Position numbers and translations under genes: made by a program
Assembly: GCA_966210405.1 (NCBI GenBank)
Contig: CBIHLH010000002.1
Coordinates: forward strand, 1,903 to 65,902
DNA length: 64,000 nucleotides
Direction: 5' to 3'
Source: an uncultured Marinobacter sp.
GTDB taxonomy: Bacteria > Pseudomonadota > Gammaproteobacteria > Pseudomonadales > Oleiphilaceae
In this document: positions 712 through 7,685 of the stretch, in pieces
Layout: every line of letters starts with the position of its first letter
Numbering within the stretch: position 1 is the first letter of the stretch
Notes under the pieces: model-generated
What the model saw: only the letters and a program-made list of their open reading frames with translations
Told to the model about the DNA's origin: nothing
The model's database searches: none

Positions 712-727
712 GCGCGCTGGGTCTCCA

Positions 728-952
728 TCAGGCGGCGAACTGAATCACCTCTACCTCGTGGTTCAGTTTTACCGCTTCCTCTGCCATCGCCAAAATCTGC
801 ACGGAACTCTCCTCACCCAGATAATACTCACCGCAACTCTCACAGATCTCGGCGGGTACTTTCTTGACAACGATAGTCGTTTCTCCGGGTGTCATTGTGA
901 CGGTTGTGTTGCCATGGTGGGTTTCACCCTGTTTGCAGATCAGGCATTTCAT
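728..952 (-). CDS. YgiT-type zinc-ribbon protein (resembles the MqsA antitoxin N-terminal domain), 74 aa
   Basis: MKCLICKQG...IVVKKVPAEICESCGEYY with two CxxC pairs; ends QFAA. ATG is 8 nt after the cas7 stop, with GGAG upstream. Confidence 0.85.
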   Translation of the reverse strand: MKCLICKQGETHHGNTTVTMTPGETTIVVKKVPAEICESCGEYYLGEESSVQILAMAEEAVKLNHEVEVIQFAA

Positions 953-960
953 TCGGGCTC

Positions 961-1833
961 TTACTCCAAAATCTTTTGAAGCGTTACCCCTTTCGGCAAC
1001 CCAGACTCATCTATAGCTACGCTGTAGTCTTTAAAGCTGCGGGCTGGCCCACCGTTTACGCGGTTGATTTCAATGAGGTCGAAGAGCTTACGGGCCGGGG
1101 CATTACCGATCGCGCTTTCATGCTTGAATACATACAATCCACACGGCGACATTTCTCCCCTGCTCGCTGACCGATCATGATCCAGCATGTTTACTAGGGA
1201 CTCCCACAGCAAACCCAAATCTTCTTCGCCAAAACCCGTTTGTTTGGCAAGGCTTGCGGATACATAGCCGTGGCATCGGTACAACCCATAAGGAATGGTA
1301 AATTTCCTGCCCATGGTCCGATTATCACCACTCTGCTTTTCTGCTTCTTTTTCAGTCGCCACCGCCATTCTGGTGATGCTGTGCTCTGCGCTCACGACCG
1401 GCTCGACACTGCGTGCGAAATTAATCTGCACCGGGCCACGAACTTGTCCGGCGTTAATCTCGGTTGACATAACCGCACCAAAAGTCCGGATGTCAAAAAA
1501 GTTCCCACACATCCAGCCCGTGACTTTTTTCGCGTCTTCCTCTTTCTTCGGCAACTTCTTGGATTCAGGTTTTAGATCATATGCCTTGTAAGCTTTTTCA
1601 TGGTTCCGGTTCAGGACCGCTTTTTCCTTTACATAGATGTCGAAAGGCGGCTCCTCGGATTTGACCATGCCAACATAATTACGAATCTTCCGCTTCAGGC
1701 AAACATCGGTAACCAACCCCTGCCCGGTTTCCGCATCAACACGTGGCAGATTACCAGCGTCGGGGTCACCATTGGGATTTCCGTCTTTTACATCAAACAA
1801 GAAAACAAACTCATAACGGTTATCAAGGCTCAT
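961..1833 (-). CDS. cas7c: Type I-C Cascade backbone Cas7/Csd2
   Basis: [60 protein letters not shown]. Confidence 0.97.
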
Positions 1834-2210
1834 GCTGTTTCTCCTTCAGCAGCGGTGGTTTCAGTTTTTGTGTAAAGCGCCTGGCGCTGGTGGTAGTAGC
1901 CGATGGCAAACAGTCCCTGGTCTTCCAGGTTGAGGTGAGGTGGAAACTCGCCAATATCGGACATGATGTCCGATATTCTGCGCTGGGCCGCATTTCGCCA
2001 GGACGGATTTTCAAGCTTTTTCAGGTGGTGCGTGTGCAGGCGCATCAAGGTTCCGAAAACCGATTTTGGCGAGCAGCTCGCACTACTGTAGTAACGATCA
2101 CGAATTGTAGAATTAAGATTGGGGTTCGCGTCCTGCTGAAGCTTTTCGAGGACGGCAAACAGGCTACCCAACAGATATCCGATTCGCTTTTCTGAGGGAT
2201 TGTGGGACAC
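1830..2210 (-). CDS. cas11c: Cas11c small subunit translated from an internal start in cas8c (126 aa)
   Basis: In-frame GTG at 2210 with AAGGAG (2222-2217) 6 nt upstream. Product (V/M)[29 protein letters not shown]...[10 protein letters not shown] matches the Cas11c pattern known from type I-C systems. Confidence 0.8.
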
Positions 2211-3596
2211 GGATAACTCCTTTTCTGGTGTTCTGTTATATCGCGCCTGCCTGTTGAGGCTGGCCTTGATAAGTGCGGCTCGACAGAAAGAGACTTCGCC
2301 TTTTTCCGCTTTAATTCTCTTTATGACTGCTTGCAGGGCGCTCGCAGGAAGCGGTAGCCCGGAGAGGATCGCCCTGACTGTCTCCCCGACGAGGTGGGGT
2401 GGCATATTTTTATCCTCTCCAAGCAGCGCAGTGCTTCGCAGAAGGGCTTTCACTGAGGGATATTCGAGCTCCCCATACTTCACTATCTGAATATCGTTGA
2501 ACCATTGAGCCAGTCGCTCTGAGAACTCCTCAACCGTGCCGGTATGCCAGAAACGAACAGCGATACGAGATGCGTTTGGGGCTAATCCAAGGATATAAAA
2601 ACGTTGGGTCCCGTCTGGCTGTATGTAGGCCCCGTTGTGCAAAGCCTCAAACAACGCTTTGACCGTTTTCACGCCCTTATCTGGATTGTCTGGCGGGGGC
2701 CCACCAAACAAGATCGGAAGAGCAGTATCGAGAAAAGAGTCTTTCTCAGACCAGCAAATCGCCACCGTCTCGTGAAATTTGAAGCGATTAGGTGATCCAT
2801 ATCGTAGTAAGTGGTTCAGGGCTGTCGTATATTCAAAAACGACCTTTTCACTCACCGGAAAATTCAAACCCTGACTTTTTCCATGAGAGGAGAATGCCGG
2901 GCTTTCGCCATCATTGATCGCACATAACGGTTCAGGTTTTTTGTTTATTCCCGAAACCCTTCCGTGCAAGCGAGCAATCGGCCCGCGCTCTCCGGAGACT
3001 AAACAAATACCATCTGACTCATCCGCCGCGATGCTCTGTTCACACCACTCCTTGACAGATGGGGACTGGCAAACCAGAAACGGCTCATCAGCCAGCTTGA
3101 ACGTTAGATTGCATCCTTTTATTTTCAAGATCTCCTGCCATTCAGGTGAGGATTTAACCTTTTCCTTTTCGGACTGATTCGACAGAAACTTCCGAACCGC
3201 AGATACGCTTGCATCGTCCGGGATCTCATCATGAATTTGCTTTATCTTATGGATAAATGCTTCGTGTTGACGCGAAGCCATTAACGCATCTTTTTCGCTG
3301 GGCTCCGCATCAGGTTTATCCACCTTTGGCTGTCCCAATACATAACCGAAGTGATCCCACAGTGGGTATGCCGTCTCATAAGACTTCGCTCCACTCCGCC
3401 CTTTCCCATGAGGAACGACGAACATTTGAGCCCGGAGTTTGTCTCCTTCGCTACGATCCCGTGTGTCGGTGAGTTGGACGAAACGGCCGTCTTGATCAAT
3501 GACAATCAGAAAAGGAATTTCCTTTTCCTCAAATCCGATGGGTGCCAGTTGATCCTGCTTCCGATGATAGTATTCAGTCAGTGCCTGAAGAATCAT
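1830..3596 (-). CDS. cas8c: Type I-C Cascade large subunit Cas8c/Csd1
   Basis: [55 protein letters not shown]; lies between cas5 and cas7. Confidence 0.96.
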
Positions 3597-4255
3597 CCTC
3601 GCACCTCGCTACTGGTTTTAGCCGGCACATCTACCACTCCGTTTTCCAGACTCGCGTTGAAAAACAGGGGAGCAGGAGCCTTGGGATCACTGTAATCCAA
3701 GTCATAAAGCGTCCAGCCCAGATTGCGACTCTCGGAAATCGCTGCGGCGGATGGTGTTGATTCGTCAACCAGCGTGAAGTCACAGCTAAATTCCCGACAA
3801 CCAAGATAGGGCTGGTTGAAGCATTGCCCCTTTTCTGCCCTGCGCCGGAACATATCTGCAAACTTCGCAGCGGAATCCTCAGGACCGGCCTGATTTGTCA
3901 TCTGAAATTCACCATGGAGCCGATAAGCCACATCTTTCAAAAACAATCCGGCCCGCTGTTTCCGTTCTTCTTCCACGTAAATGCCCAACTGCCCGACACC
4001 TTTTTTCATCGCAGTCTGGGCATTCCGGGCTAAGGTGATGGCGCCAACCTCATTCCGGCGCAAGTTAATCCACTTGATCGGCTTCAGGACTTCGATTCGG
4101 GTAATCCGCCACTCAATAGCAGGCTTCCATAGAATGGCCTCAAAGATGGCCCTCGCGGCAGACGGTGTAATGACGTCGTAGCTGACCCGCTCAACCTTCA
4201 TTTCCGGTCGCGTGAAGCACGCAAATTCGCCTGATACTTCAATACAAAAGCCCAC
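3593..4255 (-). CDS. cas5c: Type I-C Cas5 (Cas5d, pre-crRNA processing)
   Basis: ACFTRPEMKVERVSYDVITPSAARAIFEAILWKP, QPYLGCREF. Start moved to GTG at 4255, which has GAGGGA upstream. Confidence 0.95.
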   Translation of the reverse strand: MGFCIEVSGEFACFTRPEMKVERVSYDVITPSAARAIFEAILWKPAIEWRITRIEVLKPIKWINLRRNEVGAITLARNAQTAMKKGVGQLGIYVEEERKQRAGLFLKDVAYRLHGEFQMTNQAGPEDSAAKFADMFRRRAEKGQCFNQPYLGCREFSCDFTLVDESTPSAAAISESRNLGWTLYDLDYSDPKAPAPLFFNASLENGVVDVPAKTSSEVRG

Positions 4256-4275
4256 GGTTTTTCCCTCTATCGCTT

Positions 4276-6555
4276 TTAACTGATGATCATTCTTTCTGCA
4301 CCGAACAACGCGTCCGGTGGCTGAATGCCCCATAGTCTGTCGTAGTGACTCTGCTCAACCACAAATTGTCCCGCCTTGGGATATAACGCGCCTGCGGCCT
4401 CCAGCTTTTTGGCAAAAGATTCCGGCAAGGTGACACTGAAACGCTGCAATTTTCGATAGATCCATTTGGCGGAACTGTCGGAATCCAAGACCTCCAACCA
4501 TGAATGAATGGGGCTTTCATCGAGCCCGTCCGGGCAGTAGGGCACGACGACACCAATGCCGTTATCGTCAATGAGTCGAAATTGTTCCGCAGCCTTGCGG
4601 AAGGAAATATCTAGGGCAGGATCGGTTGTCTGTTCCGCCTTGAGCAAGTCGCATATCTGGTATCTGTCGCGATTGCCCTTGCGATTAAGCTCGCTAAAGT
4701 AGCGCCGGATACTTTCAGGGCTCAATGGGTCGTCCAACAGACCGGCTTTGAGCAATGTCAGTGTGGTTTGTTCGCCCTGCCTGAGAAATCCAGGTGGTGC
4801 TGGCTGCTCTGGCAAAAAGACTTCAACTCTCCCGAAGCCATCCAGCCTATCTTCCCTGTTACAACGTCCTGCTGATTGAGCAATAGAATCAAGCCCTGCC
4901 ATAGCCCGGTACACCACTGGGAAGTCGACATCGACACCAGCTTCTATCAATTGCGTACTGATTACACGCAGAGGTCTGTCGTCCCCGTTTCTCCGGGCAT
5001 CCAGTCGCTGTCGGATGTGTGAAATAATAGCCGAGCGATGTTCGGCACACATATTCGCCGACAGGTGAATATTGTTGCCATCATCCGCCAGCCGACCGAA
5101 CAGGTCTCGCGCATTATTTCTTGTGTTGACGATCACCAGTACGCAAGGCTCATTGCCCACCAAATCGCTGAGCGCGTCCCAGCTTGTGGGACCGGCATCC
5201 AGAGACGGCATATTGATTGACACCCGCTTCAACGCTTGCGCAAGTTCAGACGGAGCCGGAACAATTTCTCTGATGTTGCCCAGCCCCTGCTGCTCAATAC
5301 GATCAAAGGCATCTCTCTGTTCGCCCAGTTCCGGTTGGGTAGCGGTACACAGAACCCAGGTGACGCCGAAATACTCGGTCATCTGGCGCATAGCCTGGGT
5401 AATCGGCTTATGAAAATCTCTCGGCAACTGCTGTGCTTCGTCAAGCACAATCACGGAGTTGACCAGATTATGCAGTTTCCGACACTTGCTGGTTCGTGAC
5501 GCAAACATAGACTGAAAAAGCTGGACATTGGTGGTCACAATCAGCGGAGCATCCCAGTTCTCGGTTGCCAGCCGGGAACGAGTTGTCTCAGCGGAGGGCG
5601 CCACGTCAAGGTTGCTATGGTGTTCGAGAACGGCATCTTCGCCGAGTATGTCCCGGAATACTTTGGCGTTCTGCTCGATAATACTGGTGAAAGGAATGGC
5701 ATAAACAATCCGGGTTTTACCGAATTTTTCGGCATGACGCATTGCAAAGGCCAGACTTGAAAGGGTTTTTCCACCGCCGGTCGGCACCGTCAGGCTGAAA
5801 ATACCCGGCTCAAGCTCTGCTGTCGAAAGACAGCTATCAAGGATCGAGCCCCTTATCTCATTCAATGGGTTCGGTTCGGCAGCATTTCGAAAATTATCCA
5901 TGTGCCGGAAGAACAAGTCAGAAATAGTACCGAGTGTCACATCAGTGCATCGTTTTTCGGCTTTTCCCGGGGACATGTATTGTTCGGTATCCAGAAAATC
6001 CGCATCCACCAGGCATGAAAAGATTAGCCTTATCCAAAGATTGATAGCATCGGGATCTTTCGCAGCATCTGGGATGGCGGGCATCTCACCGACCAGAATA
6101 TCCGTGGGGATATCTTCCAAAAGTGATTCAAGGTATTCGGTTTTGGACTCTTGAAGGCGAAAACTCAACGCTCCGCGTCCTCCGATCCAATCCGGCAATC
6201 CGGCATGATGCCCGGAAATAATGTACGCCAGGATGTGACCGAACACCGGTCCAAACTTTTCCACCGCATGAGTTGCACCGGCGGTCGAGTGTGTCACCCG
6301 ACCGGAGCCCTGTTCAACGTGGGCGTTTTCTCTGTCGTATCCGGTCTGATCGCGGATATACTTCTGAAACGGGTCACGATACTTTCCAAGGTCATGCCAA
6401 AGCCCCGCCAGGGAACCCCATCCTTCGGAACCAAAGCGGCTCGCACTGTTTGCCGCCAACCGGGATACATCCCTGAGGTGATCTTCCAGGGAATGCGGAA
6501 CATTCCAAGTGCCGTCATCGTTCTGTTTGGCGTGTGCTATATATTCCTTTAACAA
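4276..6555 (-). CDS. cas3: CRISPR-associated HD nuclease/helicase Cas3
   Basis: HD domain (HSLEDHL, WHDLGK, GHHAGL, LVDADFLD), Walker A PTGGGKT, DEAQ, QSAGRCNRE. Confidence 0.97.
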   Translation of the reverse strand: MLKEYIAHAKQNDDGTWNVPHSLEDHLRDVSRLAANSASRFGSEGWGSLAGLWHDLGKYRDPFQKYIRDQTGYDRENAHVEQGSGRVTHSTAGATHAVEKFGPVFGHILAYIISGHHAGLPDWIGGRGALSFRLQESKTEYLESLLEDIPTDILVGEMPAIPDAAKDPDAINLWIRLIFSCLVDADFLDTEQYMSPGKAEKRCTDVTLGTISDLFFRHMDNFRNAAEPNPLNEIRGSILDSCLSTAELEPGIFSLTVPTGGGKTLSSLAFAMRHAEKFGKTRIVYAIPFTSIIEQNAKVFRDILGEDAVLEHHSNLDVAPSAETTRSRLATENWDAPLIVTTNVQLFQSMFASRTSKCRKLHNLVNSVIVLDEAQQLPRDFHKPITQAMRQMTEYFGVTWVLCTATQPELGEQRDAFDRIEQQGLGNIREIVPAPSELAQALKRVSINMPSLDAGPTSWDALSDLVGNEPCVLVIVNTRNNARDLFGRLADDGNNIHLSANMCAEHRSAIISHIRQRLDARRNGDDRPLRVISTQLIEAGVDVDFPVVYRAMAGLDSIAQSAGRCNREDRLDGFGRVEVFLPEQPAPPGFLRQGEQTTLTLLKAGLLDDPLSPESIRRYFSELNRKGNRDRYQICDLLKAEQTTDPALDISFRKAAEQFRLIDDNGIGVVVPYCPDGLDESPIHSWLEVLDSDSSAKWIYRKLQRFSVTLPESFAKKLEAAGALYPKAGQFVVEQSHYDRLWGIQPPDALFGAERMIIS

Positions 6556-6637: not shown

Positions 6638-7597
6638 TCAGTACATCCCCGCCATCCTCCGTATCCTCAAAACCACCTCCTCCCGGAGTTCCGGCGGCCC
6701 GAGCACTTCCACGTCCGCCCCGTATCGCAGCACTTCCATGGCCAGTTCCCGCTCATCGGAGTAGGGAACTTTCAGGTGGTAGCCATCGTCCTTTTGCTCG
6801 CCCATCTGATCGGGGTGCCAGGTTTCGTCCGCCACCCACTCCGCTGCATGGTGGGAAAATCTGAGGTGCGCCGTGCCCTTTGGGCCGCCACCGAAAATGC
6901 CGAAGCTGGCGTAGGCGAATCCGTCCAGTTCCTTTATCGGAATTTGCTGCGACGGCGTTTCTTCCGCCTGCGGTTGGGAAATTCGGTCCAGTGAGAACAG
7001 GCGAAGGGCCTGGGCATCGCAGCAAAGCGCCAGCAGATACCAGTTGGATCGGTAGTGCAGTAAGCGTTGCGGATGAACCCGGCGGGGTTTGCGGCCGGTT
7101 CCGCTGCGGGCGCTGTAGGTAAAAGTCAGCTGTTTACCCGCCAGTGTCGCTTCCGCCACCGGGTCGAAAATCTGGTGCGGGGCCATGCGGGCCTGGATGG
7201 GTTGTATCTGGATGCGCTCACTGACTCGTTCGGCGGCGTGCCCGGATTCGCCCAGCAGGCGCCGGATTTTTTCCTTCAATGGCGCCAGCCGGCTGGTCAT
7301 CATTCCGGGTTGCACGTTTTCCAGTAGCTGCTCGCACGCCAGCAGTGCGTAGAGCTCGGCGGGGTTCATCCAGAACCCTGGCAGTTCGAAGGCGGGCGAA
7401 TCCGGGGCGTAACGATGGCCGTTATGATCCCGGCAATACTCCAGGGGCGCTCCGAGTGAGTCCCTCAGGAACTCGAAATCCCGGGTAATGGTGTTCCGGC
7501 TGGCTTCCAGTTCCTCCATAAACACCCGCATGGGCACGGGATGGCGGGCATTACGGAGCAGATCATGAATCTTGTAGATGCGGTCAAAACGGGTCAC
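6638..7597 (-). CDS. HTH-WYL-WCX transcriptional regulator
   Basis: N-terminal wHTH (ELEASRNTITRDFEFLRD), WYL core (RRVHPQRLLHYRSNWYLLA...LFSLDRI), C-terminal W..EVLRYGADVEVLGPPELR; GTG start with GGAG. Confidence 0.92.
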   Translation of the reverse strand: MTRFDRIYKIHDLLRNARHPVPMRVFMEELEASRNTITRDFEFLRDSLGAPLEYCRDHNGHRYAPDSPAFELPGFWMNPAELYALLACEQLLENVQPGMMTSRLAPLKEKIRRLLGESGHAAERVSERIQIQPIQARMAPHQIFDPVAEATLAGKQLTFTYSARSGTGRKPRRVHPQRLLHYRSNWYLLALCCDAQALRLFSLDRISQPQAEETPSQQIPIKELDGFAYASFGIFGGGPKGTAHLRFSHHAAEWVADETWHPDQMGEQKDDGYHLKVPYSDERELAMEVLRYGADVEVLGPPELREEVVLRIRRMAGMY

Positions 7598-7685
7598 AGC
7601 GGCTCCATGCCAGGGTTTATTCGCTTACTACTCACCTCCCAAGCTTAGAGACTGTCGTGCAAAACGCCAGTTTTCAGGTTGCCAA

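Follow-up and report, generated by a model that had tools for sequence, protein, structure and literature searches.

An orphan YgiT/MqsA-type zinc-ribbon gene between cas7 and cas4 of a Marinobacter type I-C operon: a probable toxin-antitoxin remnant

The zf gene and its place in the cas operon

The window, i.e. the whole stretch of 64,000 nt (64 kb) analysed here, contains a type I-C cas operon on the minus strand, in which a small gene, referred to as zf, separates the last gene of the effector module from the first gene of the adaptation module (Table 1). The window itself breaks off within cas1; the full cas4-cas1-cas2 set is present on metagenome contigs that are identical to the window DNA. 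According to the gene calls on identical contigs, cas3 is directly preceded by a gene for a WYL/WCX regulator (window ~6638-7685). Beyond the left end of the window, the same DNA carries a CRISPR array of 50 repeats (GTCGCGCCCCTCGCGGGCGCGTGGATTGAAAC), which starts 180 nt after cas2 (L082:8368-11685; labels of this form denote the loci compared). Active spacer uptake was considered as a sign of adaptation and rejected: the near-clonal arrays differ between samples only by internal spacer losses, and the cas2-proximal spacers are shared.

Table 1. Positions of zf and of the surrounding genes and junctions in the window, followed by the states of the cas7-cas4 junction in the window and in related loci
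Feature	Location	Strand	Evidence or remark
cas3	4276-6555	minus	
cas5	3593-4333	minus	
cas8c/csd1	1830-3596	minus	Pfam and NCBIfam
cas7/csd2, 290 aa, end of the type I-C effector module	961-1833	minus	TIGR02589 414 bits, PF05107 362 bits
cas7-zf spacer, 8 nt, toxin deletion junction	953-960	minus	GAGCCCGA on the coding strand
zf, 74-aa YgiT/MqsA-N-type zinc-ribbon ORF, ATG start	728-952	minus	ORF and translation, MKCLICKQGETHHGNTTVTMTPGETTIVVKKVPAEICESCGEYYLGEESSVQILAMAEEAVKLNHEVEVIQFAA
Approximate recombination breakpoint in zf (zf nt ~150-166)	787-803	minus	identity drop vs L145
zf-cas4 spacer, 16 nt, GGAG ahead of the cas4 ATG	712-727	minus	sequence
cas4, 208 aa, start of the adaptation module	85-711	minus	PF01930 103.8 bits, TIGR00372 121.6 bits
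cas1, GTGA overlap with cas4, runs past the window edge	start at 88	minus	
Toxin frameshifted	L004		toxin gene lacks 58 nt internally
Toxin deleted, zf intact	L098/L100		remnant of 96 nt with the last ~30 nt of the toxin gene
Toxin deleted, zf intact	L104/L105		remnant of 87 nt; first toxin codon fused to the last
Toxin deleted, zf intact	L101		remnant of 25 nt that matches the 3' end of the toxin gene
Toxin deleted, zf intact	L091/L092		remnant of 27 nt
Toxin deleted, zf intact	window		8 nt left
Toxin deleted, zf intact	L080/L108		6 nt left
zf also broken	L106		partial toxin; zf N-terminus disrupted
Scar only	L151:2393-2500		108 nt: toxin 3' end and last 14 zf codons
No insert	L152		cas7 and cas4 directly overlapping; canonical I-C

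The original prediction, made from the letters of the DNA, had described a 74-aa reading frame that starts 8 nt after cas7, ends 16 nt before cas4 and carries two CxxC pairs. The sequence agrees on each point: the cas7 stop codon occupies positions 961-963, the zf stop codon 728-730 and cas4 starts at 711, and the cysteine pairs are C3/C6 and C37/C40. The 3' end of cas7 reads ...TTG GAG TAA GAGCCCGA ATG, the final triplet being the zf start. The GGAG that had been proposed as the ribosome-binding site of zf is indeed present in the end of cas7, but its distance of 11 nt from the ATG is long, and an AAGAG lies closer, at 5 nt. No promoter-like or terminator-like site was found in window 712-960. 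That zf is built into the cas operon, as the original prediction had it, is supported: it has no signals of its own and, most likely, is passively co-transcribed with the cas genes.

Family, fold and usual partner

The profile search that had been proposed to verify the family places zf among the YgiT-type fingers: it scores 45.9 bits against TIGR03831 (YgiT_finger; cut-off 20.2), spanning profile positions 1-46 of 46, and 34.1 bits against PF15731 (MqsA_antitoxin; cut-off 30). The latter match is limited to profile positions 1-65 of 131, which confirms that zf lacks a helix-turn-helix (HTH) domain; the protein ends at residue 74 and has one helix (47-62) in its model. Against TIGR03830, the full-length MqsA family, it reaches 29.4 bits, under the cut-off of 61.8. 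A PDB profile search with 26 relatives matched the MqsA N-terminal domain (E about 8e-4) and brought the four cysteines into register, and a Foldseek search with the AlphaFold2 model (pLDDT 81) returned the MqsA N-domains 3gn5, 3ga8 and 3hi2 as the only confident matches (TM 0.62-0.67). Cys3, Cys6, Cys37 and Cys40 are the predicted zinc ligands; they are invariant in the relatives and align to the MqsA cysteines. The protein terminates in ...IQFAA, and the terminal Ala-Ala, to which attention had been drawn earlier, is invariant in the 26 aligned relatives.

Close homologues number 161; almost every one has a length of exactly 74 aa, and the cysteines, the GEYY motif and the C-terminal FAA are invariant among them. 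A family search with one genome per species yielded at least 472 genomic loci across many phyla. In 50 of the best 80 of these at least 472 loci, an ORF of ~95 aa either runs up to the start of zf or overlaps it, and all five partner ORFs scanned belong to PF14076 (DUF4258; 73-87 bits), so that the upstream DUF4258 toxin is, as had been supposed, the usual partner. Because this toxin gene is the usual partner of the family, zf is classified, on family grounds, as the presumptive antitoxin of an ordinary and widespread type II toxin-antitoxin (TA) pair. A 2025 survey assigns DUF4258 to the RelE/ParE (BECR-fold) toxin superfamily and reports its pairing with MqsA as well as fusions, the family being otherwise undescribed in the literature (PMC11980606). 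In PHROGs, zf matches only families of unknown function.

The pair in the cas operons of relatives

A search with the Cas proteins of the window found the order cas7, 95-aa DUF4258 gene, zf, cas4-cas1-cas2 in ten of ten Marinobacter genomes, and with further cas-embedded loci drawn from metagenome contigs and from look-ups started with Cas4, cas7-DUF4258-zf-cas4 is seen in L002-L011, L093-L097, L099, L102, L103 and L145-L150 (toxin truncated in L004). The survey of type I-C loci, suggested to substantiate zf as a new component of this junction, thus reveals the full DUF4258-zf pair at the same junction in relatives. Thiotrichaceae form a second clade in which the pair sits, co-oriented, where the effector genes of a type I cas operon meet the adaptation genes; one of its loci (L038:2841-5211) is of type I-E and has the pair between cas6e (Cas6e/CasE PF08798) and cas1, again at this boundary. 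Neither YgiT/MqsA within cas operons nor the DUF4258/YgiT pair in I-C operons was found in the literature.

In the pooled set, 27 cas-embedded loci possess the toxin, most of them in the type I-C order cas7-DUF4258-zf-cas4 (26 assigned automatically and L007 corrected by hand), 12 lack it, the window not counted, and one or two have it truncated; outside cas loci, the ratio is 57 with toxin versus 29 without. About 70% of the sampled family members are located outside cas loci, and the cas-embedded ones are mostly accompanied by the toxin; a preferential association of the family with cas loci that is independent of the toxin was therefore not found. These numbers bear on the proposal that zf is a domesticated accessory factor of CRISPR immunity, a zinc ribbon recruited to modulate Cas4-Cas1-Cas2 or Cascade. 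The tight, co-oriented placement of zf directly ahead of cas4 in many loci, with start/stop overlaps in L002, L070, L075 and L080, speaks in its favour, as does the recurrence of the orphan form, but the toxin accompanies zf in nearly all such loci and the bulk of the family resides elsewhere.

Two further arrangements were observed in this survey. In a Thiotrichaceae MAG (L061:4348-5003), DUF4258-zf and cas4 are separated by an additional TA pair in opposite orientation, which by appearance consists of a 93-aa Phd/YefM-like and a 124-aa ParE/RelE-like protein, so that the cas7-cas4 gap contains two TA modules. In a gammaproteobacterial MAG (L022:3998-5263), an orphan zf without toxin is found between cas3 and a RhuM-family gene (PF13310).

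Loss of the toxin gene and the decay series

In relatives, the site between cas7 and zf comprises about 340 nt, i.e. an intergenic stretch of 50-70 nt and the gene for the ~95-aa DUF4258 protein; in the window, only 8 nt separate the two genes and, as the original prediction had pointed out, leave no room for a toxin. Alignment of the window DNA with L005, L002, L006 and L004 shows a clean gap that spans the toxin gene and its upstream spacer. In a tblastn search with 50 DUF4258 toxins and one unrelated ORF, no DUF4258 homologue was detected in the 64-kb window (best E 0.015), and the identical metagenome contigs carry no toxin gene out to cas2 and the CRISPR array. The identical zf protein was read on 23 near-identical contigs, all toxin-less in layout; eight of these are shown, each from a different metagenome sample. 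In the zf tree, the window copy is nested within a Marinobacter cas-embedded clade (SH-aLRT 87), the other members of which are toxin-bearing except for L004 with its truncated toxin, and L145, whose Cas4 is 98% identical to that of the window, retains the toxin. Because the window copy nests among toxin-bearing, cas-embedded relatives, its orphan state is ascribed to a toxin deletion; by these comparisons, zf is the surviving antitoxin half of a pair whose toxin gene was deleted in this lineage.

The related loci can be arranged in a series that leads from the intact pair and a frameshifted toxin gene via toxin deletion with intact zf to a broken zf, a scar and the canonical junction without insert (Table 1). 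L151, the scar-only locus, was located via its Cas4, which is 78% identical to that of the window; downstream of its cas2, another pair that includes a ParE_toxin gene is found (L151:4964-5523). The class with deleted toxin and intact zf comprises seven different junctions, one of them that of the window. In the decay of TA modules, the toxin must go before the antitoxin, and an orphan antitoxin is the expected intermediate. The deletions are independent events in the expected order, toxin first and antitoxin later, and the window represents the orphan-antitoxin stage of the series.

A crossover within zf

The operon of the window is a mosaic. Its effector genes are closest to those of M. excellens L005 (Cas5 89%, Cas8c 77%, Cas7 89%), and its adaptation genes resemble those of M. 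halodurans L007 (Cas4 92%, Cas1 97%, Cas2 96%), the effector module of which is unrelated (Cas7 35%). In the adaptation part, the metagenome contig L145 is closer to the window than L007, with Cas4 98% identical at the amino acid and 95.7% at the nucleotide level (dS 0.17) and Cas1 about 95% identical over the 152 residues present on that contig; zf itself is only 80% identical. This discrepancy is unevenly distributed along the gene: nt 1-150 of zf are 70.7% identical to L145 with saturated dS, whereas nt 166-225 are ~95% identical (57/60), and the same trend from 5' to 3' is seen against L007. The split in identity therefore places a recombination breakpoint within zf (Table 1). The identities indicate that the 3' third of zf, cas4 and cas1 are recently co-ancestral with L145, and that the 5' two thirds of zf are not.

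The zf-cas4 arrangement also stands beside other effector variants, with toxin in L007 and L075 and without it in L091. The crossover shows the TA site to be a junction at which effector and adaptation modules are swapped. Such conservation of the pair next to cas4-cas1-cas2 when the effector module differs (L007, L075, L091) would be in line with an accessory factor of adaptation; however, the co-inheritance of zf with Cas4, which a comparison of trees was meant to uncover, breaks down within the gene, as the crossover parts the N-terminal two thirds of zf from the ancestry of cas4. No co-evolution signal with a Cas partner was found, Cas4 being 98% and zf 80% identical to L145.

The crossover also bears on the long terminal branch of the window copy in the zf tree and on its identity to relatives of 78-80%, beside 92-98% for Cas4. 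Accelerated evolution of the orphan was considered and rejected as their cause: synonymous sites are saturated in nt 1-150 of zf and the remainder is nearly identical to L145, which points to recombination, and the number of lineage-specific changes is ordinary (7 in the window zf versus 3-10 in relatives).

Sequence constraint on the orphan copy

The window zf has kept its frame, the four cysteines, the GEYY motif and the FAA tail; it also shows two substitutions, R22P and N39S, at sites that at least 90% of the relatives conserve. R22 is changed in two toxin-less lineages (the window and L098), and so is N39 (the window and L108). When conserved columns are defined as those at least 85% conserved in all sequences pooled, cas-embedded zf proteins depart from them in 5/8 distinct toxin-less versus 4/22 toxin-bearing cases (Fisher one-sided p = 0.03; phylogeny ignored); over all contexts, toxin-less copies likewise depart more (Mann-Whitney p = 0.013; phylogeny ignored, few events). 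Both comparisons provide modest evidence that the constraint on toxin-less zf is relaxed. The intact ORF with its motifs and the presence of one allele on 23 near-identical contigs speak against a relic, and so does the dN/dS ratio on the path from the window zf to its relatives, which is low (0.05-0.07), with dS saturated beyond the closest pairs; this path may mostly predate the loss of the toxin, and part of it reflects the different ancestry of the two portions of the gene. The frame was kept after seven toxin deletions, compared with one or two loci in which zf is broken as well, so that selection could keep the zf frame, although sampling with a zf query favours intact copies.

Across the cas genes, 0-2 substitutions separate the eight fetched contigs with the identical zf protein, which are nearly clonal. 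On a single low-coverage contig (L090:664-873; P0002), the window zf carries an in-frame deletion of 5 aa (TTIVV) that removes a core beta-strand; this variant could reflect either decay of the allele or an error of the assembly.

Discussion

The evidence is best accounted for by zf being an orphan antitoxin relic, a disarmed remnant of a TA module that most likely has no role in CRISPR immunity; this reading is considered probable. The ancestral pair would have consisted of a DUF4258 toxin (RelE/ParE, BECR) and a stand-alone YgiT/MqsA-N zinc-ribbon antitoxin of type II, inserted co-oriented at the effector/adaptation boundary, with the order cas7-toxin-antitoxin-cas4 in type I-C and cas6e-toxin-antitoxin-cas1 in one type I-E operon. 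Like the MqsA N-domain, which blocks MqsR, the zinc ribbon would be expected to bind its DUF4258 partner and thereby to neutralise it. The invariant C-terminal FAA may serve as a protease tag that renders the antitoxin labile. The intact pair would act as an addiction cassette, which may incidentally stabilise the cas locus in the way proposed for vapBC. In the lineage of this genome, the toxin gene was deleted down to the 8 nt now found, which orphaned zf, and a crossover in zf linked an effector module of the L005 type with an adaptation module of the L145/L007 type. The antitoxin is probably functionless or nearly so and is most likely following L106 and L151 along a path of loss that these two loci have gone to its end. 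The persistence of its DNA may be due in part to the need for the toxin to be lost first and in part to the 3' end of zf adjoining the start region of cas4.

Among known systems, the N-domain of E. coli MqsA (YgiT; 3GA8, 3GN5, 3HI2) shares its fold and the four zinc-ligand positions Cys3/6/37/40 with zf, and according to the title of PDB entry 3HI2, this domain is the toxin-binding part. MqsA, however, has 131 aa, whereas zf has 74 and lacks the C-terminal HTH DNA-binding domain; the partner in the relatives of zf is DUF4258 rather than MqsR, the relatives encode the toxin first, and the window copy is devoid of a partner. With the DUF4258/YgiT-finger type II pairs, zf agrees as a full-length member of the antitoxin family; in its relatives, the two genes abut or overlap, whereas in the window the adjacent, co-oriented toxin gene is missing. 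TA pairs of another kind, vapBC of Sulfolobales, are interspersed in cas cassettes and were proposed to stabilise CRISPR-Cas in the population (PMC4390879), and CreTA is presented as an addiction module guarding cas genes (PMC9458426). The TA module of the relatives is likewise situated inside a cas operon; in contrast to the archaeal vapBC pairs, it is bacterial and of the protein-protein type II, and unlike CreTA, it is not a Cascade-dependent RNA module. The window copy differs from both in being disarmed and hence cannot act as an addiction device; as an antitoxin without a toxin in cis, it resembles orphan chromosomal antitoxins and anti-addiction modules. TA pairs inside cas cassettes are thus already known, and what is added here is the decay series of DUF4258/YgiT in I-C operons.

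Alternatively, zf could be kept as an antitoxin in trans that neutralises a DUF4258-type toxin, whether this toxin is encoded at another site of the genome or arrives with mobile elements or incoming cas cassettes. All 23 near-identical contigs have an intact ORF, zf has repeatedly been kept after independent toxin deletions, and the DUF4258-zf pairs are so common and so mobile across phyla that cross-reacting toxins are plausible. Nevertheless, this explanation is considered unlikely: the 64-kb window is free of DUF4258 homologues, the genome search returned only one zf-like match and thus no hint of another module, the residues replaced by R22P and N39S hardly vary in toxin-bound copies, so that their change would be surprising in a working neutraliser, and L106 and L151 demonstrate that zf can be lost. 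Another reading, which starts from the mosaic structure of the operon and is deemed quite unlikely, regards the DUF4258-zf cassette not merely as selfish cargo but as a recurrent linker of effector and adaptation modules in type I cas operons, in which the conserved 3' end of the antitoxin gene provides a homology patch for shuffling and selection keeps the orphan, once the toxin is shed, as an anti-addiction or Cas4-proximal factor.

The zf frame might also survive in cis only, supporting the expression of cas4 by translational coupling or by providing the region of its ribosome-binding site, with the protein idle. The zf-cas4 gap of only 16 nt with GGAG inside, the scar in L151, in which the final 14 codons of zf are preserved along with the spacer to cas4, and the 3' third of zf as its best conserved part at the nucleotide level are all consistent with this idea; coupling, however, would need neither the Cys ligands nor the whole 74-codon frame, and in L152 cas4 is expressed from a direct cas7/cas4 overlap. 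As an explanation for the gene as a whole it is very unlikely, and retention for the sake of cas4 translation possibly applies to the 3' end of zf only. The domesticated accessory factor, put forward originally as the best candidate for a new component, is highly improbable and is not borne out in view of the toxin-bearing relatives, the decay stages and the crossover within zf; moreover, Cas4-Cas1-Cas2 sets 69-78% identical to that of the window work from the scar-only (L151) or insert-less (L152) loci, and the PADLOC run on the window assigned no hit to zf, for which it has no matching model.

For annotation, interpreting zf as a probable antitoxin relic does away with a tempting but false lead, in that this small, conserved gene of a cas operon would be a disarmed TA remnant and not a Cas component. 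One TA family, the DUF4258 toxins of which are still uncharacterised, has become established where effector and adaptation genes meet in type I-C operons and in one type I-E operon, in at least two gammaproteobacterial lineages, and has left there a complete natural decay series together with a crossover marker between cas modules. These loci constitute a clean natural data set on the gain and loss of TA modules inside operons and on the question of whether TA cassettes stabilise or shuffle CRISPR-Cas loci.
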